DNA of 50,757 nt, taken from NCBI GenBank assembly GCA_903831805.1, contig CAIKZD010000006.1, forward strand, positions 1-50,757, written 5' to 3'. Source of the stretch: an uncultured bacterium (lineage in GTDB: Bacteria; Patescibacteriota; Minisyncoccia; Moranbacterales; UBA2206). Position 1 is the first letter of the stretch; every line of letters begins with the position of its first letter. Below, in pieces: positions 6,124 through 41,702 of this stretch. The position numbers and the translations under genes were made by a program. Below the pieces are notes generated by a model. It searched no databases, had not been told where the DNA came from, and saw only the letters and a program-made list of their open reading frames with translations.

Positions 6124-7872
6124 ATGCGCGTTGAAAATAAACAACTGAAAGAATTTATTTTAGATTCCAAAAAGGTAGACCCGGATAAGCTCGCAGTAGC
6201 CTTCGAAGCGGCGGAAGAAAGTGGAAAAAAATTGGGCGATATCCTTTTGGAAGAAAAATTGATCGAAGCGGAAGAGCTGCGAAAGCTTTATGCGTATATT
6301 TTAGGCATCCCTTTTGTGGATATCTCCAAGGATGCGGTGCCAGCGGAAATTCTCCAGATTGTGCCTGAACCAATCGCGAAAAAATATAAAGTCGTGGCTT
6401 TTGAAAAGATCGGTCAGGAACTGAAAGTGGCGATGCTCAATCCGGAAGATATCCAGACAGTCGACTTTATTCGTAAAAAAACCGGACTGAAGATCATCCC
6501 TTGTCTCACGACCGAAGAGGGTATCGAAGTGGTGCTTAAGCTATATAGCAAAAGTTTGAAGGCGGAATTCGGTGATATGATTGAAAAAAATTCCGCCGCC
6601 GTGTCGGAAGAAAAATCCGCCGATAGTTTGGAGGAAATCGCGCAGGGCTTGCCAATCATCAGGATTGTCGACACTTTGATAAAGCATGCTATCTTGCAAG
6701 GAGCGAGCGATATCCACATCGAGCCGGACGAGAAGGAAGTGCGGGTGAGATATCGCATTGATGGCATTTTGCACGAAGCGATGACCCTGCCGAAACAAGT
6801 GAGTGATGGCATCATTGCGCGGATAAAAGTGCTGTCGAATCTGAAGCTGGACGAACATCGCATTCCGCAGGACGGCCGCTTTAAGATTGAGAAAGAGGAT
6901 ATAAAAATTTCTTTTCGTGTTAGTATCTTGCCGATCTTTGACGGAGAAAAAATAGTTATGCGTCTGTTGAATGAAAACTCCAAAGGTTTGACGCTGGAGA
7001 AGATGGGGCTGGTGGGAGAAGGTTTAGAAATCATCCATCGCGAAATCAAACGGCCCAATGGCATGATCCTAGTGACCGGTCCGACCGGCAGCGGAAAAAC
7101 CACCACACTCTATACTGTGATGGATATTTTGAACACGCCTGATGTGAACATCAGTACCGTAGAAGATCCGGTAGAATATCGGATGAGCCGCATCAATCAG
7201 ACACAAGTCCATCCCAAGGTGGGGCTGACTTTTGCGGCGGGCTTGCGCTCCCTTTTGCGCCAAGACCCGGATATCATTATGGTGGGAGAAATCCGTGATA
7301 ACGAAACGATGGAAATGGCTGTGCAAGCCGCCATGACGGGTCATCTGGTTTTGTCCACTCTCCACACCAATAGCGCCGCCGGCACGCTGCCTCGGCTCAT
7401 TGATATGGGCGCTGAACCTTTTCTGGTGGCTTCGACGGTGAATGTGATTATCGCGCAACGGCTGGTGCGTAAGCTTTGCGCCGATTGCCGCAAAGAACAT
7501 AAGCTGGAAGAGGAAGAATATAAGACGTTGCAAGACAATTACAATATGGAAGAGATTTTGGAAGTGCTCAAGAAAAATGCCGGTATGAAAGAGTGGTTAA
7601 AAGCGGCTGATACCTGGCAGGATATAACTTTCTACAAGGCCGCCGGGTGCGAACATTGTAACCAGGAAGGCTATCATGGCAGGAACGGAATTTTCGAAAT
7701 TTTGGAAGTGACTGAAATCATCAAGAAGATGATTTCCCAGAAAGCGGATGCGACCGAAATTGAAAAAAAAGCCAAGGAAGATGGCATGCTGACGATGATT
7801 GAAGATGGTTTTTCAAAAGCCATCACGGGCATCACATCCATTGAAGAAATATTAAGAGTAACTAAGGAATAA
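6124..7872 (+). CDS. pilB: Type IV pilus assembly ATPase PilB/GspE
   Basis: ASDIHIEP, GPTGSGKTT, LRQDPDIIMVGEIRD, STLHTN, tetracysteine motif. Confidence 0.9.
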   Translation: MRVENKQLKEFILDSKKVDPDKLAVAFEAAEESGKKLGDILLEEKLIEAEELRKLYAYILGIPFVDISKDAVPAEILQIVPEPIAKKYKVVAFEKIGQELKVAMLNPEDIQTVDFIRKKTGLKIIPCLTTEEGIEVVLKLYSKSLKAEFGDMIEKNSAAVSEEKSADSLEEIAQGLPIIRIVDTLIKHAILQGASDIHIEPDEKEVRVRYRIDGILHEAMTLPKQVSDGIIARIKVLSNLKLDEHRIPQDGRFKIEKEDIKISFRVSILPIFDGEKIVMRLLNENSKGLTLEKMGLVGEGLEIIHREIKRPNGMILVTGPTGSGKTTTLYTVMDILNTPDVNISTVEDPVEYRMSRINQTQVHPKVGLTFAAGLRSLLRQDPDIIMVGEIRDNETMEMAVQAAMTGHLVLSTLHTNSAAGTLPRLIDMGAEPFLVASTVNVIIAQRLVRKLCADCRKEHKLEEEEYKTLQDNYNMEEILEVLKKNAGMKEWLKAADTWQDITFYKAAGCEHCNQEGYHGRNGIFEILEVTEIIKKMISQKADATEIEKKAKEDGMLTMIEDGFSKAITGITSIEEILRVTKE

Positions 7873-7875
7873 TTT

Positions 7876-9096
7876 ATGCGCATATTTTATACCGCGAAAA
7901 ATTTTGAGGGCAAAGTTAAATCAGAAGAAGTGGATGTGCGGAATGAGCGTGAATTGGCGGCGCAGTTGCGGGCTGAAGGCTATGTCATGACTTCGGTGGA
8001 AGAATTGAAAAGTGAAGCGGATGGCGGCAAGGATATCAAATTTATGAACCGCTTTATCAGAATCTCTTTGACTGACAAATTGATGTTCACGCGCAATTTG
8101 AGTGTCATGATTTCTTCCGGCTTGCCGCTGTCCAAGGCCGTTCGAAATATTGCGGCTCAGACGCAAAAGAAAAAATTTGCCGCTATTTTGAATCAGATCT
8201 GCGAAGGCATCCAAGCCGGCGGCGCCTTTGCCGATGGCTTGGCCAAATATCCGGGGATTTTTGATGAGCTTTTTGTTAATATGATACGCGTAGGAGAGAC
8301 TAGTGGGGGATTGGAAGAAGTGCTGGATATTTTGGCCATACAGCTGGAGAAAGAACATGAGCTGATGAGTAAAGTGAAAGGAGCGATGACATATCCGGCA
8401 GTCATCGTGGTGGCTATGATGGGCATTGCCGTTTTGATGTTGACATATATCTTGCCAAAAATGATGAGCGTTTTCACGGACATGCATGTTGAACTGCCGG
8501 CTTCTACTAGGTTTATCATTTTTTTGAGCGATTCTTTGCGCCAACATGGCATCCTAGTGACGGCGGGCGGAGTCACTCTGATTGTGGCTATAAAATTATT
8601 TATAATGACTGCCTCTGGGAAAAAGACGCTCAGTTTTATGACGGTCAATCTGCCGGTGGTCAAGAAAATTGTGATTAAAGTGAATTGTTCCCGGTTCTCC
8701 AGAATATATAGCTCATTACTCAAGAGCGGCGTGTCCTCTGTTGAATCTCTTAATATTATTTCTCGTACGCTCACCAACTACTATTACCGTCGCGCTATTG
8801 AAGACGGGGTGGAGCAGATCCAAAAAGGCATCCCACTGAGTGAGATCATCGCCAAGTATCCTAAAATTTTTCCTATCTTAACTGTCCAGATGATCCAAGT
8901 GGGTGAAGAAACCGGCAAGACGGAAATGGTGCTTTTGAAATTGGCGGAATTCTATGAAGGCGAAGTCGATCAACTGTCCAAAAACATGTCTTCCATCATT
9001 GAGCCGGTGCTGATGATTTTCATCGGTTCAGCCGTCGGCTTCTTCGCTGTCTCAATGCTGCAACCAATGTATTCCATTATGGATTCGATAAAATAG
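7876..9096 (+). CDS. pilC: Type IV pilus platform protein PilC/GspF
   Basis: Duplicated T2SSF domain (GETSG, AMTYP, VGEETG, IIEP). Confidence 0.9.
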   Translation: MRIFYTAKNFEGKVKSEEVDVRNERELAAQLRAEGYVMTSVEELKSEADGGKDIKFMNRFIRISLTDKLMFTRNLSVMISSGLPLSKAVRNIAAQTQKKKFAAILNQICEGIQAGGAFADGLAKYPGIFDELFVNMIRVGETSGGLEEVLDILAIQLEKEHELMSKVKGAMTYPAVIVVAMMGIAVLMLTYILPKMMSVFTDMHVELPASTRFIIFLSDSLRQHGILVTAGGVTLIVAIKLFIMTASGKKTLSFMTVNLPVVKKIVIKVNCSRFSRIYSSLLKSGVSSVESLNIISRTLTNYYYRRAIEDGVEQIQKGIPLSEIIAKYPKIFPILTVQMIQVGEETGKTEMVLLKLAEFYEGEVDQLSKNMSSIIEPVLMIFIGSAVGFFAVSMLQPMYSIMDSIK

Positions 9097-9125
9097 GGGA
9101 GTGGCGTGAAATTTTAATACTAAAA

Positions 9126-10499
9126 ATGGAAATTGGAAAAATAAAAAACCAAAATAAAAAAGGTTTCACGCTTATTGAGGCGTTGACTTTGTTGTTCATT
9201 TTTTCCATCATCACGCTCACCTTCTATAACGTCATTGTGATTGGTTCGCGCTTCATTATTTCTGCCAAGAATCGCTTGGGCGCGGTTTCAGTGGCCAACG
9301 AAAAAATGGAAATTATTCGGAATCTGAGATACGAAGATGTCGGGACTGATCATGGTGCTATCACGGGTAAGATTTTAGGCGATGAATATATCGCGGAAAA
9401 CGCCAGTCATTTCCATGTCAAAACGACGGTAGAATACGTTGATGATTCTTTTGATGGAGTTGAGCCGACAGATACGGCGCCAGAGGATTATAAAAAAGTG
9501 ACTATTGTAATTTCTTGGAACAACAATACTGAGTCGACCAACTTGGTTTCTCGCTTTGTGCCGACCGGCATGGAAGTGGCGAAACCGGGCGACGGCTTTT
9601 TGCGCATCAATGTTTTTAGCGATCAGCCGGGCGGCACCGGCATTCCAAATTCGAGTGTGCATGTGGTGAATGGTGACACCGGACTGGATACCACAGTCCA
9701 GACCGACAGTTCCGGTAGTGTGATTCTAATGGGCGATAAGATTAAAAATTCCATTAAAAAATACAGAATCACGCTGGCTAAACCCGGCTTTGAAAATGTG
9801 ACCACGATGCCACCCTATCCGGCCACAGCCTATAACCCGGTAGATGGGGACGCTTCGGTAGTGGTCGGTTCGATGAATGTCGCCAACATTGTCCAGGATG
9901 AATTGGCCAATTTGAAAGTGGATTCGGTGGACTATCTGGGCAACCCCATTCCTAATATAAGTTTCCATATGGTGGGCGGGAGAATAATTGGCAATACAAT
10001 CGTGACTGCTTCCAATCCAATTGCTTTGCCGGTGTATAATTTAGATTCAGACGCGACGACTAATGCCAGTGGAGAGCATGATTTCGGTTCGGTCAGTCCG
10101 GGACAATATACCTTTACTTTAGGTGCTTCAGTTTCCAATTATGTCCTAATTGACACTGATCCGGTTTCCCCGCTTTCACTTTTTTCCAATCAGAATTTAG
10201 TGCTAAAAGCCAAGTTGGCCGCCAAAAATGTCACCTCACTCATGGTAAAAGTCGTGGCTAGTGACGCCGTCACCCCGATTGCTGGCGCGCAAGTGGAACT
10301 GAAAAACGGCGCGGGCTATGATGTCACGGCTACTGCTTCCAGCACCGGCATTGTCTTTTTACCGATAGACGCCACGCCACTTTTGCCCGGCACTTATGAT
10401 TTGAAAATTACAGCCAGCGGTTTTTCCGATAGCAACAGTCAAGTCATAATCAACCAAAACCAATTGGAAACGGCCACGGTAAAACTTAATGCTTCCTAA
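9126..10499 (+). CDS. Large minor pilin (prepilin) with carboxypeptidase-regulatory/Ig-like C-terminal repeats
   Basis: KKGFTLIE class III signal peptide followed by a beta-rich extension. Confidence 0.8.
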   Translation: MEIGKIKNQNKKGFTLIEALTLLFIFSIITLTFYNVIVIGSRFIISAKNRLGAVSVANEKMEIIRNLRYEDVGTDHGAITGKILGDEYIAENASHFHVKTTVEYVDDSFDGVEPTDTAPEDYKKVTIVISWNNNTESTNLVSRFVPTGMEVAKPGDGFLRINVFSDQPGGTGIPNSSVHVVNGDTGLDTTVQTDSSGSVILMGDKIKNSIKKYRITLAKPGFENVTTMPPYPATAYNPVDGDASVVVGSMNVANIVQDELANLKVDSVDYLGNPIPNISFHMVGGRIIGNTIVTASNPIALPVYNLDSDATTNASGEHDFGSVSPGQYTFTLGASVSNYVLIDTDPVSPLSLFSNQNLVLKAKLAAKNVTSLMVKVVASDAVTPIAGAQVELKNGAGYDVTATASSTGIVFLPIDATPLLPGTYDLKITASGFSDSNSQVIINQNQLETATVKLNAS

Positions 10500-11139
10500 G
10501 ATGAAAACTAGAAACCGAAAAATTTATGCCGGAATGACCCTCATTGAAATGCTGGTTTCGATTTCGATTTTTACCTTGGGTATCGGCGGTTTTGCTATGC
10601 TCTTTTCCAAAGTTTGGCAGAACAATAGCTATACCTTGGAAATGGGACAGTCTTCCATGGCGGTTTCGCAAGGAGTTAATACGATTGCCAACTATATCCG
10701 CGAATGCCAGCAAGGAGACAATGGCGCTTATCCAATCGTCTCAGCCAGTGGCAACGATCTGGTTCTATATTCGGATTATGATAAAGATGGCGCAACGGAA
10801 CGGTTGCATTTCTACAAAAGTGGCCAGAGTGTTCTGATGGGCGTGACCAGTCCGGCCAATACCATGCCCAAAACCTATCCAGTGGGTGATCAAACTGTAG
10901 TAACCATTGCCAGCCACATTGTGAACAACGGCAGTACGCCGATATTCTATTATTACAACAAAGATTACCCGCTCGATACGACTAATAATCCTCTAGTTGC
11001 CCCGGTCGATTTTTCTGTCATCAGGCTGGTCAAGATGTATCTGCAGATCAATATCAACCCGGCCCATGCGCCGGACAACATCGAGATGCAGACATTTGCC
11101 GAACTGCGAAATTTGAACGATTATGATCATTTAAAATAA
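10489..11139 (+). CDS. Minor pilin (PilW-like prepilin)
   Basis: AGMTLIEML prepilin motif; alternative start at 10501. Confidence 0.8.
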   Translation: MLPKMKTRNRKIYAGMTLIEMLVSISIFTLGIGGFAMLFSKVWQNNSYTLEMGQSSMAVSQGVNTIANYIRECQQGDNGAYPIVSASGNDLVLYSDYDKDGATERLHFYKSGQSVLMGVTSPANTMPKTYPVGDQTVVTIASHIVNNGSTPIFYYYNKDYPLDTTNNPLVAPVDFSVIRLVKMYLQININPAHAPDNIEMQTFAELRNLNDYDHLK

Positions 11140-14957: not shown

Positions 14958-15400
14958 ATTTTCTAAAAAACATAAAAAATATAAAAAAATTTCTCAAGCC
15001 CAGCTATTTGCTGGAAGTGCTTTCTCATTTTTTCGGCCGCTATGCCAGAGCTTTTGTTTTTTTGATTGCGATTGCTTTGGTCGGTTTTTGTATCAATCTC
15101 TGGCGCACCACCTTGTATCAAGCACAATGGAATGCCGGTCAAAAGGCAGAATATATCAAAAACAAAGGCCAAGGAACCACTTTCAACGAGAAAGGTTTTG
15201 AATATGACACGGCGGCCGCTAAAGCGAGAGACGATGAGAGCAAAAAAGACATCGGAAATCTAACGGACATTTTCCGCTTGGAGAAAGCGGCGCCGACGCC
15301 GACGCCAGTCGATAAGGCAGCTACTGCCAAACCAGCGACTGTTTCCATGATACAAGTGGTCCCTTCGATTGGTGCAACTGCTGCCGCTCCGGTTCATTAG
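14954..15400 (+). CDS. Hypothetical membrane protein at the end of the pilus operon
   Basis: Overlapping ATGA coupling, one TM, Ala/Pro/Thr-rich tail. Confidence 0.6.
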   Translation: MNFLKNIKNIKKFLKPSYLLEVLSHFFGRYARAFVFLIAIALVGFCINLWRTTLYQAQWNAGQKAEYIKNKGQGTTFNEKGFEYDTAAAKARDDESKKDIGNLTDIFRLEKAAPTPTPVDKAATAKPATVSMIQVVPSIGATAAAPVH

Positions 15401-15500
15401 CGACGAAAAATAAAAAATCAGGCCGTGGCTTGTTCAAGGGGAGTGCTCAGGATTTAAATAATATGTTAGTATTAGGTGGTAGAATAACCGCAAAAGTTTT

Positions 15501-16007
15501 ATGGACAAAAAAACAAAAATATTTTTTGTGATTTTCGCCTGCTTGATCGTTGGGTCAGTGGCTTTTACTTTTTATAAAATTGAAATTAAAAAAGACTACA
15601 TCATGGAAGGTCAGATTGATTGTGACCCGACGGCAGAAAAATGTTTTATTTGGAAATGTGACCCTGCGTCTAATGTGGAAGGAGAAAAGTGCACAGGGGA
15701 CAAGGAAAAGGATGTCTGGTATTATCAAATCGCCAAGAGAAATGCAAGCCATATCCCGCTTTGCGATCCGGATAAGGATGAGACTTGCGATCCATGGACA
15801 TGCGGCGAGGGTGAAAAGGACTGTTCGAACACTTTTTGTGATGATCAAAATAAAGTCGAGCAAGAGGTGGAGTGTAGCGATCCGGTGCAATATAACATAG
15901 ACAATCCGCCAGCGGAGGAGGCAGTGATGTGTGAGGAAGGTGATGAAACTTGCGCTAACCGAATAAATGATAAAAGCGTAGAGGGGATTAAAAACACAGG
16001 AGAGTAG
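15501..16007 (+). CDS. Membrane-anchored Cys-rich acidic protein
   Basis: N-terminal TM, 13 Cys, four CDP motifs, D/E-rich. Confidence 0.7.
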   Translation: MDKKTKIFFVIFACLIVGSVAFTFYKIEIKKDYIMEGQIDCDPTAEKCFIWKCDPASNVEGEKCTGDKEKDVWYYQIAKRNASHIPLCDPDKDETCDPWTCGEGEKDCSNTFCDDQNKVEQEVECSDPVQYNIDNPPAEEAVMCEEGDETCANRINDKSVEGIKNTGE

Positions 16008-16043
16008 TTTGGAAAAAATATAAGTTAGAATATATTGTAAAAA

Positions 16044-16982
16044 ATGAATCATATTTTAAACAACTGGTTGTTTGTTGCTTTTCTAGCTCCATTTTTTTGG
16101 TCATTGGTTAATATTATTGATCTTTATTTTGTTGAAGAAATATACGATAATGAATATGACGGAACAGTTATGACGGGGTTGGCGCAGATTATTCCTTGGT
16201 TCACTTTGCCATTTATTGGTCTAGTGGTACCAGATTTAAGAAGTGTTATCATGGCAACACTGGGAGGGTTTTTTTTAGTTACGGCCTACTTTTTTTATTT
16301 TAAGGCTCTTTTTTCAACAGGTGATGCAGCCCTGATTCAGATAATTTGGAATACTGTCGGGATTTTTGTTCCAATTTTGGCTTTTTTGTTTTTGCAGGAA
16401 AAATTGTCCGTCGTGCAATATCTTGGAATCGGAGTTACTTTTATTGGGGCAATGTATATTTCATTTAATAATAAGTTTCAAGGCGGAAACACAAGAAAGA
16501 TTATTCCAATTATGGCTGGAGCGATTATTTTTTTGTCTTTAAGCATGATATTCACGCGGGATGTTTATTCCAGAACATCATTTCATAGTGGGATTATGTT
16601 TTTTTCGTTAGGATCTATATTAGCCGGAATATTTTTCTATTTTTTACGAATAAGAAAACATGGGACTGGAAATTTGATAAATATCGGAAAAAAATATTAT
16701 ATATGGTTTTTATTAGTGGAGAGTTTGACTATGTTGGGCATTATTGCTTCACAAAGAGCTATTAATATAAGTCCTGCAGTGTCTTTTGTAGCCGCAATAG
16801 AAAGTATCCAACCAGCTTTTATAATAATTGTCAGTGCCGTATTTTTTTCATTTCTTTCTCTGTGTTCATATAAAAAGAAGGATATTATCAAAAGAATATA
16901 TAATGATCAGCTTGTTGGAATTTATGCAAAGATTTTCGCCATTATAATAATGGCAGTAGGTATATATATGATAAATTTATGA
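16044..16982 (+). CDS. EamA/DMT family transporter
   Basis: About 10 TM helices in two repeats; FLFLQEKLS motif. Confidence 0.8.
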   Translation: MNHILNNWLFVAFLAPFFWSLVNIIDLYFVEEIYDNEYDGTVMTGLAQIIPWFTLPFIGLVVPDLRSVIMATLGGFFLVTAYFFYFKALFSTGDAALIQIIWNTVGIFVPILAFLFLQEKLSVVQYLGIGVTFIGAMYISFNNKFQGGNTRKIIPIMAGAIIFLSLSMIFTRDVYSRTSFHSGIMFFSLGSILAGIFFYFLRIRKHGTGNLINIGKKYYIWFLLVESLTMLGIIASQRAINISPAVSFVAAIESIQPAFIIIVSAVFFSFLSLCSYKKKDIIKRIYNDQLVGIYAKIFAIIIMAVGIYMINL

Positions 16983-17105
16983 TTTTTACAAACACAAGAT
17001 GATGTGATAATTTTTTGTAATGAATTGTTTCTGTTGTGAGAGCGTAATTAAGTATTGAATTTACTGAAATATTTAGAGGTATAATTTATTAATTTTCATA
17101 AAAAA

Positions 17106-17501
17106 ATGGAATCTTGTAATTTTGGGGAACATTTAATGCTGGATGGTTATGGGGGAGATCCTGTAAAATTGAATGATAGAGATTTGGTTATGTGTGCACT
17201 GGTTGATATGCCCCATAAGCTAGGCATGAAAAGGCTGTCTGATCCTATAATAAAGGAAGCTCCAGACAATAACATCAAAGATCCTGGGGGATGGAGCGGA
17301 GTTGTAATTATTGCAGAAAGTCATATCAGTGTACACACTTTTCCAAAAAGAAAGTTTGTGAGTGTGGATGTTTATACTTGCCGGAACGGATTAGATAGAA
17401 AATTTATAAAAAATTATTTTAAGAAAATATTTAAATTGGATGACATTGAGGAAAACTTTGTGAAACGAGGAACGAGATATCCTGATAAAAATTTATGCTA
17501 A
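17106..17501 (+). CDS. speD: S-adenosylmethionine decarboxylase proenzyme family (pyruvoyl-dependent)
   Basis: [26 protein letters not shown] cleavage site, DVYTC; substrate not verified. Confidence 0.85.
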
Positions 17502-18808
17502 ATAACAAAAAAAAATTAAAAGTGCTCTTTGTGTCTGGAGAATTGATTGCGGGAGACGTGGCATATCGACTGAAGCAGGAGGGTTGTGTTGTTAAGCTCT
17601 ATATTAAAGATGAAAGTAGAAAAGATTGTTTTGATGGAATGGTTGAAAAAACTGATGACTGGAAAAAGGAATTAGACTGGGTGGGTAAAGATGGATTAAT
17701 TGTGTTTGATGATGTGATTTTCGATAATGATGCTGATGAATTAAGCAAGAAAGGGTTTAACGTTTTTGGTGGTAACAAGAGAGGTAATGAGCTAGAATTG
17801 AATCGAGAGTTCGCTCAAAAAATTTTTAAAAAGTATGGCTTAAAAACTTTAGAATCAAGGGATTTTCAAAAGGCTACCTTGGCCATAAAGTACATCGAAA
17901 AAAATAAAGGCAAGTGGGTCGTGAAACAAAACGGACATGATGGCTCTTTGACATATATTGGTAGTTTGGACGATGGTAGCGATGCTATAAGTATATTGAA
18001 AAACTTTGCTAAATATAATAGTAGTAAATCTCTACAAACTATATCTTTACAAAAAAGAGTTGATGGGGTTGAGGTGGCAGTTGCAAGGTATTTTAATGGG
18101 CAAGATTGGACCAGCCCAATCTTCATTAGCTTTGAACACAAACCCCTGTTGGATGGTGACCGTGGGCCATTAACAGCCGAGATGGGAACATTAGCTTGGT
18201 ATGATAAAAACGAAAAAAATAAGCTTTTTTTAGCAACCCTAGAAAAGATTAAGCCATATTTAATGGATACCGGTTATAAGGGTTATGTTGATATAAACAG
18301 TATTGTTTCAGAGGATAAATTATTTCCATTGGAGGCTACGATGAGATTTGGATCTCCAACTAATCAGTTGCAAAGCGAAATGCATCTATCTCCTTGGAAA
18401 AATTTACTCTGGAACACAGCTACGGGCAAGAAGTTTGAATTAAAATATAAAATAGGTTATTCTATAGTTGTTTCAGTTGCAATCCCACCTTTTCCTTATA
18501 AATCAATATCATCTGATTATTATTTAAAAGATGTCCAAGTTTTGTTTAAGGGAAAATTGACCAGTAGCGAAAAATCTCAGCTTCACTTCGAAGAAGTTTC
18601 AATGCGAGACGGGAACATTTATATAGCTGGAAGTAATGGATATATTTTATTCTCAACAGGGAATGGCGTGGATGTGGAAATTGCAAGAAAGAAAGCCTAT
18701 AGTCTTGTAGATAAATTAGTAATTCCTAGGATGCTTTATCGTACAGATATTGGAGCAAAATATGTAAAAAAAGATTCATTACTTCTAAAAAAATGGGGAT
18801 GGATTTAG
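17495..18808 (+). CDS. PurD-like ATP-grasp ligase (divergent)
   Basis: [50 protein letters not shown]; lacks the N-terminal GSGGREH of canonical PurD. Confidence 0.75.
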
Positions 18809-18852
18809 ATTTTATTGATTGAGGATAAGTTATTAAGCGCAAAACAAAAAAT

Positions 18853-20598
18853 ATGGATTATAATCTTGTCACAAATTTGAAGACTTGTTATGTAGATATC
18901 TCACCCCTTCTATATTATTCTCATATACCTACGGCGATAGTGGCCCTTATCATTGGTTTTTTTGTTTTTTGGAAAGATAGTCGTTCTTTGATTAGTAATA
19001 TTTTATTATTTATTGCTGTCGGTTTCGCTTTGTGGTCAGCTTCTGATTTGGTTATCTGGATCAATCCCGATAGTAGTAAAATAATGTTTTTGTGGTCATG
19101 GATAAATTTGTTGGAGATGTTAATTTCTGTGGCGACTTTGTATTTTTCTTATGTTTTTCTCGAAGAGAAGGACGTTTCATTTAAATTTAAATTATTCTTT
19201 GGAATCTTATTGGCGACTTTTATAATGTTTATTCCTACCAGACTTAATCTGGTAGCCTTTAATTACGATAACTGCGAATCTGTTCAGGGGTTGCTAATCA
19301 ACTACTATCATATTTTGGAGGCATTTTTTTCAGTGTGGCTTCTTGTGTATTTGATAAGGAAAATGTGGACTGTCAAAAAGATAGATGAAAGAAAAAAAGC
19401 AGTTTATTTATCCTTGGGAGTTACTTCGTTTTTATTTTCATTTTCAGGTACTAATATCATTAGTAGTATAACTACGAGATGGGAACTTCTGCAGTATGGC
19501 TTGTTCGGCATGGTTGTTTTCATGGGCTTTTTAGCTTATCTGATTGTTAAATTTAAGGCTTTTCACATTAAAATGTTGGGGGCGCAGGCGCTGGTGGTGG
19601 CTATCGTCTCCCTAGTTGGCGCACAGTATTTTTTTACACCGTTTACCGATGTTACTAATATAATTCTGATCAGCGTTACGGTTTTTGCAGCAGCGGTACT
19701 GGGTATTTGGTTAGTGAAGTCGGTTAAGATGGAAGTGGAGCGCAAAGAACAGCTCCAGCGTATGTCTGATTCTCTGGCCTTTGCCAATGATAAACTTAGG
19801 GTGAACAACACCAAGCTGGAGAAAATCGATGCGACCAAGACTGATTTCATCAACATCGCTTCGCATCAATTGCACAAGGTGCCGACGCCGATTAAGGGAT
19901 ATTTGTCGCTGCTTCTGGAAGGATCATATGGGAAGATTTCGGCGGAGCAGCGCCGAGTGCTGGAAAATATTAATTTTGCCAATAACCGCCAGATCAGCCT
20001 GGTGGATGATCTCTTGAATGTATCGCGCATGGAATCCGGCAAAATCAAGCTGGATTTCGAAAAAGAACATCTGGAAACCATTTGCCAGGAAGCGTATGAG
20101 GCCCTTGCGCCGGCTGCCAAAGAAAAAGGGCTTAAATTCAGCTGGGTCCATCCTAAGAAGGCTTTGCCTAAACTCATTATGGATAAAGGCAAGATCTTTG
20201 AAGCTATTTTCAATTTTGTCGATAACGCGATAAAATATACACCGAAGGGAAAAGTGGATCTGCAGGTCGAGCTGGATGCGGCGTCTCACTATGAAAAGCA
20301 GATAGGAGATGATGATCAGAAAGAAGCTTTGACCGGACCGGTAGTGCGCTTGACAATAGTTGACACCGGGGCGGGAATCGCCAAGGAAAATATTCCCTAT
20401 CTCTTCGTCAAGTTTTCCAGAAGAGATACAGCCAAGCTGAATATCGAAGGCACCGGCTTGGGACTGTATGTGGTGAAGCTGATGATCGAGGCGCATGGTG
20501 GTCGCACATGGGCGGAATCGGAGGGTGAAGGGAAGGGGTCGAAATTCATCATCGAGATTCCTGTTGAGCAGCCCGAACATGTCAGTGTGAAAAAATAA
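18853..20598 (+). CDS. Histidine kinase with N-terminal multi-TM (HisKA_7TM-like) sensor
   Basis: About 290-aa hydrophobic N-terminus, ASHQL H-box, DNAIKYT, DTGAGI, GTGLGL. Confidence 0.9.
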   Translation: MDYNLVTNLKTCYVDISPLLYYSHIPTAIVALIIGFFVFWKDSRSLISNILLFIAVGFALWSASDLVIWINPDSSKIMFLWSWINLLEMLISVATLYFSYVFLEEKDVSFKFKLFFGILLATFIMFIPTRLNLVAFNYDNCESVQGLLINYYHILEAFFSVWLLVYLIRKMWTVKKIDERKKAVYLSLGVTSFLFSFSGTNIISSITTRWELLQYGLFGMVVFMGFLAYLIVKFKAFHIKMLGAQALVVAIVSLVGAQYFFTPFTDVTNIILISVTVFAAAVLGIWLVKSVKMEVERKEQLQRMSDSLAFANDKLRVNNTKLEKIDATKTDFINIASHQLHKVPTPIKGYLSLLLEGSYGKISAEQRRVLENINFANNRQISLVDDLLNVSRMESGKIKLDFEKEHLETICQEAYEALAPAAKEKGLKFSWVHPKKALPKLIMDKGKIFEAIFNFVDNAIKYTPKGKVDLQVELDAASHYEKQIGDDDQKEALTGPVVRLTIVDTGAGIAKENIPYLFVKFSRRDTAKLNIEGTGLGLYVVKLMIEAHGGRTWAESEGEGKGSKFIIEIPVEQPEHVSVKK

Positions 20599-20647
20599 TT
20601 GTAAGAATAAAATTTAGCCTAATTTAATTTAACTTAATTTAATATTT

Positions 20648-21040
20648 ATGTTAAAAATAGTGATAGTCGAAGATGATCCGATGATTTCTGAAATCTTTCA
20701 GCGAAAATTTTCCGAGTCAGGGTTCGAAGTTTTTTTAGCGGGGGATGGCAAGCAAGCGTTGGAAGTCATAAAGACCCATGGCATTAATATTGTTCTCTCT
20801 GATTTGATCATGCCGGAGATGGGTGGCTTTGAGTTGACCAAGACTTTGCGCAGCGGAGGATACGATCCGAACATCAAAATCATTATCATTAGTAATTTGA
20901 TCGATAGTCTTGAGAACGCCATCGAATTGGGCGCTAATGGTTTTCTGGCCAAGTCCGCCTACACGCCGACGGAAATGGTTGGTAAGGTCAAGGAATTACT
21001 TGGCATGCCAGCTCAAGAACCGCAAGTATCGCAAGAATAA
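20648..21040 (+). CDS. Single-domain response regulator
   Basis: IVEDD, SDLIMPEMGG, FLAK. Confidence 0.9.
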   Translation: MLKIVIVEDDPMISEIFQRKFSESGFEVFLAGDGKQALEVIKTHGINIVLSDLIMPEMGGFELTKTLRSGGYDPNIKIIIISNLIDSLENAIELGANGFLAKSAYTPTEMVGKVKELLGMPAQEPQVSQE

Positions 21041-21063
21041 TTATCCCAATATTCCAGTCACCA

Positions 21064-21091
21064 AAAAAACAAGCTGTGAAGCTTGTTTTTT
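21064..21091. terminator. Bidirectional intrinsic terminator
   Basis: aaaaaacaagc-tgtgaa-gcttgtttttt between the convergent regulator gene and tRNA cluster. Confidence 0.7.
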
Positions 21092-21094
21092 GAA

Positions 21095-21170
21095 TGGTGC
21101 GCCCGGCAGGAGTCGAACCTACAACCCCTTGTTCCGAAGACAAGTGCTCTATCCATTGAGCTACGGGCGC
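21095..21170 (-). tRNA. tRNA-Arg(UCG)
   Basis: Cloverleaf; anticodon arm cttgt-ctTCGga-acaag; CCA encoded. Confidence 0.93.
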
Positions 21171-21195
21171 GTATTATTTGTGAAATCTGCAGAGG

Positions 21196-21268
21196 GGCGG
21201 CTACTGGGAGTCGGACCCAACTTCCCGGTACCACAAACCGGTGTCTTAACCGATAGACGATAGCCGCC
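21196..21268 (-). tRNA. tRNA-His(GUG)
   Basis: Anticodon arm ccggt-ttGTGgt-accgg; G-1 and discriminator C; atypical T-loop TCCGACT. Confidence 0.88.
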
Positions 21269-21305
21269 CCTCTATAGACTTTTCAATCAATGATAAAATG
21301 TCTTG

Positions 21306-21378
21306 TGCGCCCACCGGGACTCGAACCTGGGACCGTTTGCTTAAGAGGCAACTGCTCTACCAACTGAGCTATGGGCGC
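21306..21378 (-). tRNA. tRNA-Lys(CUU)
   Basis: Cloverleaf; anticodon loop ctCTTaa. Confidence 0.92.
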
Positions 21379-21391
21379 GTATTAATTTGTG

Positions 21392-21464
21392 TGCGCCGGG
21401 CAGGAATCGAACCTGCGACCAATAGCTTAGAAGGCTACTGCTCTATCCACTGAGCTACCGGCGC
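21392..21464 (-). tRNA. tRNA-Arg(UCU)
   Basis: Cloverleaf; anticodon loop ctTCTaa. Confidence 0.92.
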
Positions 21465-21523
21465 ATGATTGGTCGCGCGGACACTATGAAATACTAGCGT
21501 ATTCAGTGGTTCTCGTCAATCTT

Positions 21524-22837
21524 TTAGAGGCCATGCGCTTTTTTGTAAATATCCCATTCGTTTTGAGACCATTTTTGCGGTTTTTCGGTGATGAGTGGTG
21601 ATGCAGCGCCAGTTGAATCGGGATGCGGATAGTGGGAAGGGGAATTATAGGCACTGTTAAAAATATCGTTTTGAATCAATTTTCCGTCTTTGTCATAGAC
21701 TTCTTGGGTGAAAGTGGCTTTCATGGAACCGTCCGGATTATGCTCCAATATTTTTGGCCCGATTACATTAGTTTTCCGACCGTCCGAAGTGCCATAAAAA
21801 TCAAAAAATAATTTTGTCCCTTCAATTCTGTTTTCAACGAGAATATACCCCGGCGTATTATTGATGAAGCGCAAATCCGGACGGGGGATGTACACCGTCG
21901 AATCCATGCCTTGCGGATTATAATAGCCGACTGGATAAGCGTGTGGCGTTCGGGCGGTAATTTTCAAGCCGGAGTAGATGGCTGCACGAAAAGCCGTCGT
22001 GGACACTTGGCAGATGCCTCCGCCAAATTGCAATTCGGTCGCATTGCCGACAATCGAAAGTTCCGGCCGGTAGCCATGCTGCGCGTCCACGTCGCCCAGA
22101 TTTTGAATAAAAGAAAACTCTTCCCCAGGCTTGATTAGTACGCCATTAAATTGTTGGAGGGCCCTTTTGATGTTAAAGATCCGGTTCACCGGCGAACCAC
22201 GGAAATCAGAAACGCCTTCTCCGACGAGGGTATTGATGCCGAGGTTTTCGATGGAATCAGTGGACACAATGGGGTCAGTTTTTTTGACCGGTAGCGTGAG
22301 GGTAACGCTGAAATCGCCGCGATTGATATAGTCGGTCAAAATTTGGGCACTTTGGTCCATGTCTAATTGGACGCCCGGACTGCTCAAAGAGAAGGTGGAC
22401 ACTTTGCCATCAGCCATTTGCAACTTAGCATCGACTGCAGCAGTGTCAGTCTTGGCTGCTAAATTTTGCAAAAAAGTTTGCAGATTATTTTCATCAAGCG
22501 CGCGCGTATAGGCTTTTTGTAGGTGACCATAAAGGTCGTAAGGAAAAACCAAGTGGCAAGTCAGAGATTTCTTATACAGGCAAAAGTCCGGATTTTCTAT
22601 CTCGGAACGATATTTTTGGTTGGGAGAAAGCTTGGCGGTTTCATCAATCAAGCTTAGGAGGTCCGAAGGAGAGAAAGGATAGGCCGTGCCATTGACGGAT
22701 AAGGTCAAATCGGTGGGAATTTTGTCCGGCGAAAAGGCTTGCGAAAAATCACCTGCCATACCATTGCCGGTTGCTGCGGCCGTAGGCAAAGCCCAAAATA
22801 GACAAAATAAAACTGGTAAAAATTTGGATATTTTCAT
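21524..22837 (-). CDS. VanW family protein with peptidoglycan-binding region
   Basis: NGVLIKPGEEFSF, GGGICQVSTT, DLRFINNT; signal peptide from MKISKF. Confidence 0.88.
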   Translation of the reverse strand: MKISKFLPVLFCLFWALPTAAATGNGMAGDFSQAFSPDKIPTDLTLSVNGTAYPFSPSDLLSLIDETAKLSPNQKYRSEIENPDFCLYKKSLTCHLVFPYDLYGHLQKAYTRALDENNLQTFLQNLAAKTDTAAVDAKLQMADGKVSTFSLSSPGVQLDMDQSAQILTDYINRGDFSVTLTLPVKKTDPIVSTDSIENLGINTLVGEGVSDFRGSPVNRIFNIKRALQQFNGVLIKPGEEFSFIQNLGDVDAQHGYRPELSIVGNATELQFGGGICQVSTTAFRAAIYSGLKITARTPHAYPVGYYNPQGMDSTVYIPRPDLRFINNTPGYILVENRIEGTKLFFDFYGTSDGRKTNVIGPKILEHNPDGSMKATFTQEVYDKDGKLIQNDIFNSAYNSPSHYPHPDSTGAASPLITEKPQKWSQNEWDIYKKAHGL

Positions 22838-37816: not shown

Positions 37817-38560
37817 GATTATGGTGTATAATTAATCCATGCAAAGAAAAATACCATTTGTTAATGACGAATATCACCACATTTTCAATCGCGGTACGGA
37901 TAAGCGGCCTATTTTTCTTGACCAAGCTGATTATGAAAGGTATCTAATATCAATGTATTTTTTAAATACGCAAGAAGGAAATTTGATGGCTAAATGGCGA
38001 GATTTTAAGAGGCTTAATCGCGCGGCTAGAATTTCTGATTTTAAAATTATAAAACCGGAAGAAAGGTTGGTTGATATTATTTGTTATTGCCTTAATGAAA
38101 ATCACTATCATAAAATTTTAAAACAACTCAAGGATAAGGGAATAGAAACATTCATGCAAAAACTGGGAACGAGTTATGCAATGTATTTTAATAAGAAATA
38201 TAACCGAGTAGGGGCTCTTTTTCAGGGTCCATTCAAGTCTGTTTTCATAGATTCAAATGAATATTTTTTGTACTTATCAGTTTATGTTAATGCTAATAAT
38301 TTTATCCATGACTACAAAAGATTCCAAGGCGAGGCCTTGGGAATTTCCCAAGGCCTCGCCTTGGAATCTTGGCAGTATTGCAGCTTGCCGAATTATTTTG
38401 GACAAAGAGATGGAGTGTTGTGCAATATGAAGCCTATTCTTGATCAATTTAAGAACATTGAAGAGTATAAAGAATTTGTACAGAATAATGCTTTGTATTT
38501 AAAGGATAAAAAAGAATTGGAAAAACTTATCTTGGAATAGTATCCTAAGGCCTCGCCTTG
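37801..38560. mobile_element. RAYT locus: tyrosine transposase gene between perfect 19-bp inverted REP copies
   Basis: caaggcgaggccttaggat at 37801-37819 and its reverse complement at 38542-38560. Confidence 0.8.
37839..38540 (+). CDS. REP-associated tyrosine transposase (Y1_Tnp, IS200-like HUH)
   Basis: YHHIFNRG, YCLNENHYH (HUH), YFNKKYNRVGALFQGPFK, YVNAN. Confidence 0.88.
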   Translation: MQRKIPFVNDEYHHIFNRGTDKRPIFLDQADYERYLISMYFLNTQEGNLMAKWRDFKRLNRAARISDFKIIKPEERLVDIICYCLNENHYHKILKQLKDKGIETFMQKLGTSYAMYFNKKYNRVGALFQGPFKSVFIDSNEYFLYLSVYVNANNFIHDYKRFQGEALGISQGLALESWQYCSLPNYFGQRDGVLCNMKPILDQFKNIEEYKEFVQNNALYLKDKKELEKLILE

Positions 38561-38607
38561 TTTATTTGTTTAAAATACTTTATTTAAGCCAATAAAATCA
38601 CAATCAC

Positions 38608-38636
38608 TGGACAGAAATCCAATTTGGGTGTATAAT
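38608..38636 (+). promoter_or_regulatory. Sigma70-type promoter for the DGR target gene
   Basis: TGGACA-17 nt-TATAAT; GAGGAG RBS before ATG 38724. Confidence 0.6.
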
Positions 38637-38723
38637 ACTATATTATTTTCAAATGCGAAGATAATCCCTGACCCCAGGGCGAGGGGTGGAAAATTGGGCG
38701 AATGAGCCTGAGAGGAGACAGTC

Positions 38724-39644
38724 ATGGGAGATGTGAAAGAAGTTCTTGAAAAATTAAGGGGCATAGATGCGTCTAAACTGCTTGCCGTGGTTGATTTGTT
38801 CGGAAGCAGGGAAATATTAGAGGCGTGTCTGCGTGGCGAGAAAAGGATGACATTGGAAGATGTTATTCGAAAACTTTTCGATCACACCGGCCGTTGCATC
38901 CCGCAACATCTTGGCATAACGAAAAAAGCATGTGACGAGAATCGTGATTTTCACGTTGAATCTTCTATGCGGTATTATGCGACAACTCACGAGCGACTGG
39001 TAAGTTCTTTTCCAGAAGGAACAGAATTTCTTTCAGCAGAAGAATTTGAAAGAAATGCGGAAACGCTCAAGGCAAAATGCATTAGTCATGAACTGATTGG
39101 AAATTTTTTCCAGCGTGCTTGGCCAATTCTTCTGCCTAAACATGATGCGCGAGAGAACTATGGTGCGTCAATGCAGGATTTTATCTTGCCGGCAGTTAAA
39201 GACGCGTATAGAAGGCAGTTTCCCGAGCGAAAATTCACAAATCATCGCGACGGAGAACTGGCCGAAAAAGTTTCCATCATTTCGGGCACCGGTCATGACG
39301 AAGTGGTATCGCTGATGGCTGAAAAATCAGTCGTGGCGTGGTATTCGCCAAATCCATTTCAAGGATTTTCAATTTTCGCCCAGCGCGAAGCGATGAAAAT
39401 TCTGGTACAATATGGATTTTCGTTGGCTGGCGGGGTGGATACGGGAGTTGCAGCTGTTGCCTATACGGGTGAAATGGCGCGCGACTACAAAACGCCGGCA
39501 TGTACATGCAGTGCCATTTCTTGGCGGTCCGCTGACTATTCGCTCCACTTCAACGCGCATGACGACGAGTTCCGCTTCGGCAGCACTGATAACTTGGCTG
39601 ACGCGAATGACCTCAACTCGGGCGGTCTTGTCCTCTTCAGGTAG
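38724..39644 (+). CDS. DGR target protein (C-terminal VR, presumed C-type-lectin-like fold)
   Basis: Last 42 codons are the VR; no signal peptide or TM seen. Confidence 0.9.
   Translation: MGDVKEVLEKLRGIDASKLLAVVDLFGSREILEACLRGEKRMTLEDVIRKLFDHTGRCIPQHLGITKKACDENRDFHVESSMRYYATTHERLVSSFPEGTEFLSAEEFERNAETLKAKCISHELIGNFFQRAWPILLPKHDARENYGASMQDFILPAVKDAYRRQFPERKFTNHRDGELAEKVSIISGTGHDEVVSLMAEKSVVAWYSPNPFQGFSIFAQREAMKILVQYGFSLAGGVDTGVAAVAYTGEMARDYKTPACTCSAISWRSADYSLHFNAHDDEFRFGSTDNLADANDLNSGGLVLFR
39516..39642 (+). repeat. DGR variable repeat (VR)
   Basis: 127-bp ungapped match to 40028-40154 with 9 mismatches. Confidence 0.95.
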
Positions 39645-39714
39645 CGCCGTATTTTGTACTTTGGAACTTTTTCTCTTGGACTGGAACTTTGGTTTTGGTC
39701 TTTGGGAGAAAATG

Positions 39715-39746
39715 GGAGATGTGAATTATATTCTATTCACATCTCC
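39715..39746. other. Hairpin/cruciform downstream of the VR (candidate DGR homing element or terminator)
   Basis: ggagatgtgaat-tatattct-attcacatctcc, 12-bp stem followed by Ts. Confidence 0.65.
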
Positions 39747-40027
39747 TTTTATTTTTGCAAAAAATTTGATAGACTAATTTTGAGAGTAGGCTAATGCACA
39801 ACAGTTTACGCCTGCCTGCCGGTAGGCAAGGATTGTTGTCGCCGAAATTCTATGATTTTCATAGAGCATCAGAATCTTGAGATTACGATTTGCTATTTTT
39901 TCAGATCGCAAGAGTGCATGCGAAGATTATAGGCGCTACTTATTTCTTTTCAGCGCTCACTAGGGGCGGAATAAAATTCAGTCTCGTATATTTTTTGCGA
40001 GGCGGTGCAATGGACGAAAAGGAATAA

Positions 40028-40154
40028 ATTTCTTGGCAGTCCGCTGACTATTCGCTCAACTTCAACGCGAATGACGACGAGTTCAACTTCGACAACACTG
40101 ATAACTTGGCTGACGCGAATGACAACAACTCGGGCGGTCTTGTCCTCTTCAGGT
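40028..40154 (+). repeat. DGR template repeat (TR)
   Basis: AAC-rich; every VR mismatch lies at a TR adenine. Confidence 0.95.
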
Positions 40155-40165
40155 TGCGCTTAAAA

Positions 40166-40192
40166 AAGAGTCCTGATTTTTTCAGGACTCTT
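40166..40192. terminator. Hairpin between TR and the convergent avd gene
   Basis: aagagtcctga-ttttt-tcaggactctt flanked by A and T runs. Confidence 0.65.
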
Positions 40193-40197
40193 ATCTT

Positions 40198-40548: not shown

Positions 40549-40552
40549 AAAT

Positions 40553-41627: not shown

Positions 41628-41638
41628 TGATATTTAAG

Positions 41639-41691: not shown

Positions 41692-41702
41692 TGTCCAGTC
41701 GT

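Follow-up and report, generated by a model that had tools for sequence, protein, structure and literature searches.

A PurD-like ATP-grasp ligase linked to a 7TM histidine kinase in Patescibacteria: a candidate module for a cationic amine conjugate

Patescibacteria, the bacteria of the candidate phyla radiation (CPR), have tiny genomes and are attached to or dependent on other cells, and to our knowledge very little is known of how they sense and shape their surfaces. In Pseudomonas aeruginosa, a speD2/speE2 operon linked to PmrAB provides surface spermidine, and the Arn pathway has EamA-type flippase subunits, ArnE and ArnF. Glutathionylspermidine synthetase (GspS) and gamma-glutamylpolyamine synthetases are ATP-dependent amide ligases that act on amines, and bacteria conjugate polyamines, for example by acetylation or gamma-glutamylation, to control their pool. 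Further precedents come from the literature. Aminoacyl-tRNA transferases of the MprF type, with the domain LPG_synthase_C (DUF2156), add an amino-bearing moiety to membrane lipids (PMC11630815, PMC7334510, PMC8913301). An ATP-grasp step and an agmatine/putrescine-type amine occur together in the E-64 pathway (PMC12568646), and a glutamate-putrescine ligase is described from Haloferax (PMC8394153). Li et al. (J Biol Chem 2023; PMC10407285) showed that a singleton 'anomalous' SpeD, encoded where SpeE is missing from the genome, works as a pyruvoyl decarboxylase of ornithine or arginine; these enzymes, SpeDC and SpeDA, are common in the CPR and spread by horizontal transfer (PMC10407285). How, then, should one read a locus in which a SpeD homologue, an ATP-grasp ligase and an EamA transporter stand beside a sensor kinase? 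Such a locus lies on the forward strand of contig CAIKZD010000006.1 (assembly GCA_903831805.1) of an uncultured bacterium of the Moranbacterales, whose 50,757 nucleotides form the window analysed here. At 16044-21040 a candidate cassette runs from an EamA gene through a SpeD-type decarboxylase, a PurD-like ATP-grasp ligase and a 7TM histidine kinase to a regulator with a REC domain only. An earlier sequence-only reading had listed these five co-oriented genes, all of which are found on that strand where it had placed them, and it had seen the overlap of the decarboxylase and ligase genes, which amounts to 7 nt (ligase ATG at 17495, decarboxylase TAA at 17499-17501). What it missed is a sixth co-oriented gene, for a Cys-rich membrane protein at 15501-16007, which is part of the conserved set and extends the full span to 15501-21040.

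The evidence set out below leads us to a reading that is plausible, if somewhat short of probable: the genes would form a laterally mobile module of Patescibacteria through which a cationic amine conjugate is made, carried across the membrane and monitored, most likely to remodel the charge of the envelope. A bolder formulation, in which the 7TM kinase, a disulfide-rich co-receptor and a cargo slot make up a sensory-effector system, and a neofunctionalised PurD supplies a product for the surface or as a host cue, is held with little confidence.

The ligase and the decarboxylase

By domain profiles the ligase resembles PurD, with 47.6 bits for GARS_A and 27.8 bits for GARS_C, the latter below its cut-off of 34.8. 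With the PurD equivalog model TIGR00877 it scores 113.7 bits against a cut-off of 288, so that the threshold of the family is not reached, and the match begins only at model position 81. Members of its clade score 93-125 bits with this model while the true PurDs of their relatives score 422-509 bits, and one relative carries a true PurD alongside two clade copies. In a quick maximum-likelihood tree of 85 rows (IQ-TREE), the 82 clade rows are split from three PurDs with 100% SH-aLRT support, on a branch of 4.3 + 5.7 changes per site. Clade homologues with 49-77% identity are abundant in metagenomes, the named ones being mostly from Patescibacteria, and in public annotation they often bear the name 'phosphoribosylamine--glycine ligase', which is probably wrong for the clade.

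The genome that carries the window (1,035,243 bases in 22 contigs, 99.7% complete) was searched as a whole for partner pathways, with families each of which was matched in control genomes, from 5 of 14 (BpsA_C) up to 14 of 14 (purine families). It has a single PurD-like gene and a single AdoMet_dc gene. purF has no match genome-wide, purM reaches a match of 21 bits at most, and the PurN-like matches all lie below the cut-off (84.7 against 150). Since none of the three exceeds its cut-off, the ligase should not be PurD in function. The sequence-only reading had seen neither spermidine synthase nor another pur gene in the window, which now holds for the whole genome, and its view that the ligase is not a purine enzyme is borne out by the low TIGR00877 score, the missing pur partners and the position in the tree apart from PurD.

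The AlphaFold (AF2) model of the ligase has a pLDDT of 91, and with it Foldseek returns PurD structures as the top 14 matches (TM 0.69-0.78, 17-22% identity), followed by biotin carboxylases. Model and alignment together indicate that the three-domain ATP-grasp fold and the ATP ligands of PurD are present. For the active site, the ligase was aligned to the PurD of Aquifex, in which Asp212, Arg287 and Glu292 contact glycine and K103, K143, E185, E192 and K214 contact ATP (PMC8880213). The five ATP ligands are kept, as R104, K144, Q186, E193 and K216, respectively, and so are the Glu of the E-x-N motif (E283, here E280) and one glycine ligand (R287, here R284). The rest of the glycine site is altered: D212 is conservatively changed to E214, E292 is lost (T289), and the neighbouring D290 has become S287. 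In the E-x-N motif the Asn, N285, is T282, a Thr invariant in the clade. Where PurD has FHAGT, the ligase has HFEE, again invariant in the clade. Its N-domain loop reads SGELIAGD, and a loop of the GGREH type, which we take to be the phosphoribosylamine (PRA) loop of PurD, is absent, as had been noted from the letters alone; the motifs LTAEMGT and RFGSP noted at the same time are in the translation, opposite NTGGMG and RLGDP of the Aquifex enzyme. Shared with PurD, besides the fold, the GARS_A and GARS_C similarity and the ATP-binding Lys and Glu residues, are the EHK motif and the Arg of RxGxP; different are NTGGMG (here LTAEMG), the D290/E292 pair (S/T), the Asn of E-x-N, FHAGT and the GGREH-type loop. 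Among 25 clade sequences, 49-77% identical to the ligase of the window, 80 columns are invariant, among them those of seven Trp, of an FDD motif and of a W-G-W (WGWI) at the C-terminus. From these residues we infer that the ligase would still form an acyl-phosphate, and that the pocket for the anionic phosphoribosylamine would have turned acidic and aromatic, which would suit a cationic amine.

The decarboxylase matches PF02675 with 81.8 bits and falls just below the cut-off of TIGR03330 (73.9 against 75.65). It has a complete ES/H/C processing motif, [10 protein letters not shown]...DVYTC, and ESH...H...C aligns with S63, H68 and C83 of the Thermotoga maritima enzyme; Ser, His and Cys are the residues with roles in self-processing of SpeD (PMC10407285). 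Across the whole genome, no aminopropyltransferase was found with Spermine_synth (PF01564) or BpsA_C (PF01861), and arginase/agmatinase, deoxyhypusine synthase (DHS) or its homologue SpeY, and the PLP-dependent Orn/Arg/DAP decarboxylases gave no match either, which leaves the SpeD homologue as the only homologue of an amine-forming decarboxylase among the families searched. A SpeD is called 'anomalous' when it is a singleton in a genome with neither SpeE nor a canonical arginine or ornithine decarboxylase, ADC or ODC (PMC10407285). Because aminopropyltransferase, agmatinase and PLP decarboxylase are unmatched, the SpeD homologue of the window counts as such an 'anomalous' singleton, and it is predicted to be an ornithine or arginine decarboxylase rather than an AdoMet decarboxylase. 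With the published SpeDC and SpeDA it shares the singleton status, with no match for SpeE or ADC/ODC, and the processing Ser, His and Cys. The published clusters pair these enzymes with SpeE, HSS, SpeY or CASDH/CASDC, and the term 'ATP-grasp' does not occur in that paper (PMC10407285).

Two types of SpeD can be told apart in the cassettes. The main type reads ESHISIHTFPxRxF...DVYTC and has EamA, methyltransferase or kinase genes as neighbours, while CPR SpeDs with Spermine_synth or BpsA_C as a fusion partner or direct neighbour have HTWPE or HTYPE in place of the HTFPK found here. The second type, in four cassettes, reads ESG(V/I)QIHT...F...Y; the window's SpeD ([14 protein letters not shown]...DVYTC) does not have the Gln that these four carry. 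A Gln, a Thr, a Phe and a Tyr in the central region are diagnostic of SpeDC as ODC (PMC10407285). At guessed positions for these residues, the window has Ser, Thr, Phe and Tyr and the four other cassette SpeDs have Gln, Thr, Phe and Tyr, so that the second type may carry the signature of the published ODC clade. In a SpeD tree, three SpeE-linked or similar rows fall outside the cluster formed by the cassette type; a motif filter left out 23 of 62 rows, most BpsA-fused ones included, and those were read by eye. Matches from other sources do not settle the substrate: the best phage matches are cyanophage 'AdoMetDC' genes (37-43% identity over 66-71% of the query), and those in the PDB are AdoMetDC proenzymes aligned over 38-56 residues only. 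SpeD homologues occur in 40 of 250 genomes sampled across the phylum and in 9 of 20 ligase-bearing genomes, six of these nine having no Spermine_synth match.

Fusions of BpsA_C with SpeD were also seen in Patescibacteria, BpsA being branched-chain polyamine synthase. They belong to a set of loci (L279, L282, L286, L291 and L264; L286 is inferred from its length), are about 435-457 aa long and have S-N-S-N-L at the processing site instead of E-S-H. At one locus of this set, adjacent open reading frames (ORFs) each have matches to both AdoMet_dc and Spermine_synth.

Recurrence of the gene set and the slot beside the kinase

Related loci were gathered by a profile-guided scan of one genome per species, which returned 249 relatives. 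The best 80 loci were kept; two are cut inside the ligase, leaving 78. As the loci were picked via the ligase and some are closely related, their counts are descriptive. An orthologous kinase is present at 59 of the 78, and at 54 the 6 kb around the ligase hold an EamA-like gene, with all 21 otherwise unlabelled cluster members matching PF00892. The Cys-rich protein is found at 34-37 of 78-80 loci, the cassette type of SpeD at 27-28 of 78, a REC-only or REC-REC regulator at 17-19 loci, and members of the agmatinase family at six. A DAP-epimerase-like gene stands directly 3' of the ligase at six loci of one clade, and eight SET proteins, five GNAT proteins and seven methyltransferases also recur. 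Many of these genes are close to the ligase, within 200 nt for 18 of 28 SpeD, 23 of 33 EamA and 22 of 65 kinase genes. The remaining recurrent neighbours are housekeeping genes: class II aminoacyl-tRNA synthetases (aaRS) at 15 loci, DnaK at 13 and DnaJ at 13. These class II aaRS are of the Asp/Lys/Asn type and follow a few genes after the regulator (for example L005:11823-13250, L026:854-2239 and L046:11455-12864). The linkage with the kinase had been singled out beforehand as the refutation point for the idea that these genes work as a unit, and it is conserved.

Amine-forming enzymes other than SpeD also stand near the ligase. A PLP-dependent Orn/Arg/DAP decarboxylase is encoded at two loci (L029 and L086), at one locus such a decarboxylase accompanies the ligase together with EamA and the Cys-rich gene, and a kinase-free operon joins a basal paralogue of the ligase (G027; L033) to agmatinase, DHS-like, SpeD and SpeE genes. 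Taken with the SpeD and agmatinase counts, these neighbours support the earlier proposal that amine production is tied to the ligase, just as the frequency of EamA supports its place in the unit. Another basal clade ligase, at L032 (G022:C1:415000-432000), is near genes for 7TM_transglut and ATPgrasp_ST/Zn_protease proteins, with no kinase nearby.

The ligase is an accessory gene. Full-length orthologues are present in 7 of 40 relatives, with fragments in one more, in none of three genomes of the same genus, and in 11 of 250 genomes sampled across the phylum. Some cassette contigs are labelled Gammaproteobacteria, Bdellovibrionales or 'Fimivivens' (L034, L043, L045, L047, L050, L054, L068, L075 and L077); their ligases nest among Patescibacteria rows, and the taxonomic labels of these bins are therefore doubtful. 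A locus labelled Rhodospirillales (L061), on a 6.04-Mb chromosome, has a clade ligase and an EamA gene at about 7500-10500 with a G+C content of 0.40-0.46 against 0.52-0.57 around them, a pattern that would fit a chimeric assembly or a gene transfer from Patescibacteria. At yet another locus (L253; G393:C1:132500-147500), Cys-rich, SpeD and EamA genes, a gene for a 272-aa protein (ORF 6249-7067), kinase and regulator follow one another in this order; the 272-aa protein has no Pfam match and occupies the usual position of the ligase.

The kinase was also followed for its own sake, with the 7TM domain alone as query and flanking DNA retrieved; an initial kinase-centred set of 80 loci had been drawn in by a generic HATPase N-box pattern, held mostly unrelated kinases and was discarded. 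The N-terminal 300 residues of the kinase resemble HisKA_7TM clusters of the Atlas (feature score 0.93, structure TM 0.69-0.89). PF16927 is found in 79% of the members of the nearest clusters, and hmmscan at E <= 0.01 does not report it for the kinase itself. With this query, orthologues were found in 21 of 40 relatives and, in a sample of 200 genomes of the class, in nine. Fifteen of the 40 relatives have the kinase with no match for the ligase, the 7TM domains being 40-54% identical, and beside it stand other enzymes: SET proteins in four genomes (G004, G017, G022, G036), a PrmA-like methyltransferase with DHS and EamA in one (G012), GNAT proteins in two (G410, G002), an N-methyltransferase of the NNMT/PNMT type with SpeD nearby in one (G463), a CxxCxxCC protein in one (G001), and in three (G002, G003, G022) EamA, an MprF-like LPG_synthase_C and a short Cys-rich protein. 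Only three copies of LPG_synthase_C were found among the 40 relatives, and every one adjoins this kinase. An idea that MprF-like genes and the ligase have complementary distributions was rejected, since the genome of the window has both.

The same exchange can be followed within the genus, where the stretch between the pilus operon and a tRNA block (15400-21100 in the window) is variable. One relative (G003; L124) has EamA, LPG_synthase_C, a short Cys-rich gene and the kinase there, and another (G001; L123) has a CxxCxxCC protein, two unknown genes, kinase and regulator. In the sister genome G002 (L125/L126) the pilus operon abuts the tRNA/VanW block with nothing between them, and the kinase set is located elsewhere. 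In the window, the EamA (0.319), SpeD and ligase genes have a G+C content of 0.32-0.35, markedly lower than the 0.41-0.48 of the flanks and of the other three genes of the set (Cys-rich protein, kinase and regulator). This dip and the variability of the genus locus together suggest that EamA, SpeD and ligase are an insert beside a resident kinase and regulator. Dips in G+C are also seen elsewhere in the window, at 38000-42000 and 44000-46000 (0.38-0.41 against about 0.45).

The Cys-rich protein has no match in Pfam or NCBIfam. It has one hydrophobic segment (residues 7-25), and its ectodomain contains 12 Cys and 34 Asp and Glu against 13 Lys and Arg; eight of the Cys are invariant in 29 homologues. 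With its AF2 model (pLDDT 89), Foldseek against the PDB gives a best E of 1.9, VIA-align finds none of 48,161 chains at Z >= 2, and the Atlas gives nothing usable; the missing fold match shows neither novelty nor its absence. When the protein is predicted in complex with kinase residues 1-300, the score is 0.73-0.74 in three runs, and the best of three controls reaches 0.00. In the calibration of this score, 116 of 157 solved complexes attained the mark, as did 2 of 215 mismatched pairs; with custom alignments such figures are only approximate. The partner has a pLDDT of at least 73, and at least 79% of the contacts are common to the runs. On the side of the partner, the predicted interface comprises residues 1-38, 79 and 82, and on that of the kinase, residues 46, 74-86, 107-139 and 144. 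The prediction lends support, short of proof, to binding of the Cys-rich protein to the membrane domain of the kinase, of which it would be an accessory subunit.

A possible mechanism and competing explanations

Sequence and comparison place at the hub the HisKA_7TM-like kinase, the acidic Cys-rich protein predicted to dock on its membrane domain, the REC-only regulator and EamA, and show beside the kinase a slot for interchangeable enzymes that act on amino groups. In the genome of the window, the slot is filled by the low-G+C insert of EamA, SpeD-type decarboxylase and PurD-derived ligase. In the mechanism that we propose, as no aminopropyltransferase is found in this genome, the decarboxylase would make a diamine from ornithine or arginine, namely putrescine or agmatine. 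The ligase, with the ATP, Mg and acyl-phosphate machinery of PurD, would activate a carboxylate and couple it to the amine, giving an N-acyl- or aminoacyl-diamine, and EamA would then translocate this conjugate, as such or bound to a lipid, to the outside of the membrane. There it might serve to remodel the charge of the envelope or surface, while the kinase and its Cys-rich partner would report the state of the envelope, or of cations, through the REC-only regulator, by protein contacts and not by transcription. Confidence falls along the steps, from amide formation by the ligase to the SpeD product as the amine, then to translocation by EamA, and finally to the charge purpose, the weakest step. 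The last is suggested by the swap of an MprF-type domain into the slot, by the amine-modifying nature of the cargo enzymes, and by the precedents of MprF, Arn and PmrAB-speD2E2.

Several points weigh against this proposal. The clade has Thr for the Asn of the E-x-N metal motif and an altered glycine-rich lid, so catalysis may differ from that of a textbook ligase. SpeD is near the ligase at about one third of the loci and present in just 9 of the 20 ligase genomes, and the amine may thus come from elsewhere or vary by lineage. The kinase is absent at 19 of 78 loci (contig ends truncate some of these). With the ligase as the criterion of choice and close relatives among them, the 80 loci do not give counts of independent events. 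The controls of the complex prediction are unrelated natural proteins that need not carry a membrane helix. The SET, PrmA-like and GNAT neighbours are equally compatible with protein modification, and the substrates and the product of the module are assigned from sequence. Finally, the same genome has a canonical split MprF on another contig (C17:99000-113000, L292), consisting of LPG_synthase_C (564 aa) and of LPG_synthase_TM fused to an esterase (700 aa). On its flanks are genes for an ECF sigma factor, for a PMT_2 glycosyltransferase, for a PAP2/phosphoesterase protein and for a two-component system of the OmpR type. With an MprF that has its own two-component system, a second system for charge remodelling is not obviously needed.

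A rival explanation develops the signalling circuit of the sequence-only reading: the conjugate would be a self-made signal, which EamA would release and the kinase, with the Cys-rich protein at its side, would perceive outside the cell in a quorum-like or symbiont-host loop. The close linkage of ligase and kinase (59 of 78 loci; a distance of 200 nt or less for 22 of 65 kinase genes) and the exporter in the gene set speak for such a loop, a kinase that is mostly membrane domain with an ectodomain partner would suit ligand sensing, and the variable tailoring enzymes (SET, GNAT, methyltransferases, DAP-epimerase-like, agmatinase) would diversify the signal. Against it, orthologous sensors, 40-54% identical, stand beside unrelated enzymes in the 15 of 40 relatives with no ligase match, and a regulator of REC only, without output or DNA-binding domain, offers no evident route to autoinduction. 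When 78 sensor domains, a sample biased to ligase loci, are placed in a FastTree, the enzyme types are interspersed and kinases linked to LPG_synthase_C fall among those linked to the ligase, for which reason a common cue fits better than product-specific sensing. The cargoes might still all decorate one scaffold, and with the bias of the sensor sample this leaves the loop some weight, unlikely as it is. Of the circuit as first proposed, the functional unit, the non-purine ligase, the link of ligase and amine and the conservation of EamA are supported, and the sensing of the product by the kinase is so far not. A diamine might instead be made and conjugated for an intracellular need, or to detoxify and export polyamine in excess, with the kinase as a mere neighbour or as a regulator of polyamine levels. 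Such polyamine housekeeping would agree with the kinase-free paralogue in the complete polyamine operon of L033, with the SpeD homologue as the only amine-forming decarboxylase homologue among the searched families, and with the conjugation known from other bacteria; it is rather improbable when the ligase is an accessory gene (11 of 250 genomes of the phylum, none of three of the genus) and its linkage with the kinase too frequent for chance.

Could the ligase modify a protein rather than a small molecule? The ATP-grasp enzyme would then act on the kinase, the regulator or another protein, in a tuning like that of CheR/CheB, with SpeD and EamA as passengers. Protein lysines are the best-known substrates of SET, PrmA-like and GNAT families, all of which are found in the slot (8 SET, 5 GNAT, 7 PrmA-like and other methyltransferases), and the REC-only regulator implies an output via protein contacts. 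The nearest family of the ligase is, however, PurD, which works on small molecules, and not the RimK/TTL-type protein ligases, and SpeD, agmatinase, PLP decarboxylase, DHS, the NNMT/PNMT-type enzyme and EamA all indicate small amines, which makes protein modification decidedly improbable. A metallophore deserves mention, since a decarboxylase, a ligase and a DMT exporter, sometimes with a DAP-epimerase-like racemase, recall the clusters for rhizoferrin, staphylopine and pseudopaline. Decarboxylase, ligase and EamA would build a polyamine-type chelator to be recognised by the Cys-rich ectodomain and the kinase; the CxxCxxCC proteins in the slot, named 'zinc- or iron-chelating', and the ectodomain rich in Cys, Asp and Glu would fit. 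Genes for an importer, a reductase or a metal regulator are not recurrent in the 78 loci, though, and the eight invariant Cys fit extracytoplasmic disulfides equally well, so that we regard a metallophore as very improbable. The ordinary annotation, that of a true purD and a true speD which are chance neighbours of a transporter and a two-component system, has the public names, the Pfam matches and the folds of PurD and AdoMetDC on its side, and it has hardly any probability left, being already contradicted by a 99.7% complete genome with no partner pathway for either enzyme, by the wide margin below the TIGR00877 cut-off, by true PurDs that co-exist with the clade in relatives, and by a linkage that recurs in most of the 78 loci. 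The charge-remodelling module, for all the points raised against it, is the reading that we carry into the comparison below.

Setting of the locus and comparison with described systems

Table 1. Features of the cassette and its right boundary in the window
Feature	Position	Strand	Basis or remark
Cys-rich single-pass membrane protein, 168 aa	15501-16007	+	TM helix, then acidic ectodomain
EamA/DMT multi-pass membrane transporter, 312 aa	16044-16982	+	PF00892, E 3.7e-8
SpeD-type (class 1b AdoMetDC fold) pyruvoyl decarboxylase proenzyme, 131 aa	17106-17501	+	PF02675
PurD-derived ATP-grasp ligase, 437 aa	17495-18808	+	GARS_A, GARS_C and TIGR00877 similarity
Sensor histidine kinase, 581 aa	18853-20598	+	HisKA_7TM-like membrane domain (about 1-290), HisKA, HATPase_c
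Single-domain response regulator, 130 aa	20648-21040	+	PF00072, 79.9 bits; REC only
Four tRNA genes: Arg-TCG, His, Lys-CTT, Arg-TCT	21095..21464	-	right boundary, outside the cassette

The EamA protein has about ten hydrophobic segments and matches PF00892 with 34.2 bits against a cut-off of 28.2. Upstream, PilM and PilN directly adjoin the cassette, and downstream, besides the tRNA genes, lies a VanW gene on the opposite strand. The adjacency to the pilus operon had been pointed out before; it turns out to be particular to the genus and is not a recurrent neighbourhood in the survey of 80 loci. A scan of 15300-21300 for promoters and terminators gave 18 promoter-like and 4 terminator-like sites against 18.3 and 4.2 in shuffled sequences and no operon boundaries. 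The spacer between the EamA and decarboxylase genes (16983-17105, 123 nt) is A+T-rich, with TTGAAT and TATAAT-like hexamers about 19 nt apart, which may be an internal promoter although the consensus promoter scan does not list them. In an Rfam scan of 15000-21600, the four tRNAs alone exceed the threshold, and a riboswitch before the decarboxylase was not found. For the contig, no RNA sequencing run is listed; eight DNA runs come from three freshwater or lake studies, and four of the eight may be sources of this DNA.

Every part of the cassette belongs to a known superfamily. In a literature search of titles and abstracts, with subscription journals and bioRxiv supplements outside its reach, neither a PurD-derived clade linked to amine-forming enzymes nor its coupling to a HisKA_7TM kinase and a Cys-rich partner, nor the cargo-slot organisation, was found. 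If the clade is not PurD, metabolic reconstructions that credit Patescibacteria with this purine step need correction, and if the product is a new amine conjugate, the ATP-grasp superfamily gains a new type of reaction. The proposed module, if true, would link polyamine chemistry to two-component signalling and could explain an adjustment of surface charge or a communication with the host; a neofunctionalised PurD, in turn, would found a new class of ATP-grasp diamine/polyamine ligases whose product is used on the surface or as a cue between episymbiont and host. The gene set is compact and recurrent, and its small decarboxylase, soluble ligase, transporter, and kinase with candidate co-receptor can all be expressed.

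How does the locus compare with the described systems? Agr and LuxM/LuxN resemble it in uniting genes for signal synthesis and export with one for a multi-pass histidine kinase, and differ in that the sensor family of the cassettes does not appear to track the type of enzyme and the regulator has no DNA-binding domain. In the PmrAB-speD2/speE2 and Arn systems, polyamine or cationic-group genes and a DMT-type translocator lie, in like manner, near a two-component system for envelope stress, whereas the regulators there are DNA-binding proteins of the OmpR type, the kinase has a periplasmic domain, and an ATP-grasp ligase, a 7TM kinase and a Cys-rich partner are not among the parts. With GspS, the gamma-glutamylpolyamine synthetases and the E-64 pathway, the cassette would share the placing of a decarboxylase-derived amine in an ATP-dependent amide bond; those enzymes belong to the GspS, GlnA-like, and fungal ATP-grasp and amide-bond synthetase families, none of them derived from PurD or linked to a kinase. 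As to MprF, the enzyme of the window is an ATP-grasp protein and not tRNA-dependent, its cassette has no LPG_synthase_C, and the canonical MprF of the same genome stands elsewhere with another two-component system. Nevertheless, in three relatives a stand-alone LPG_synthase_C with EamA and a short Cys-rich protein takes the same slot beside the kinase, and in MprF, as in the proposed module, the synthase is accompanied by a translocator.

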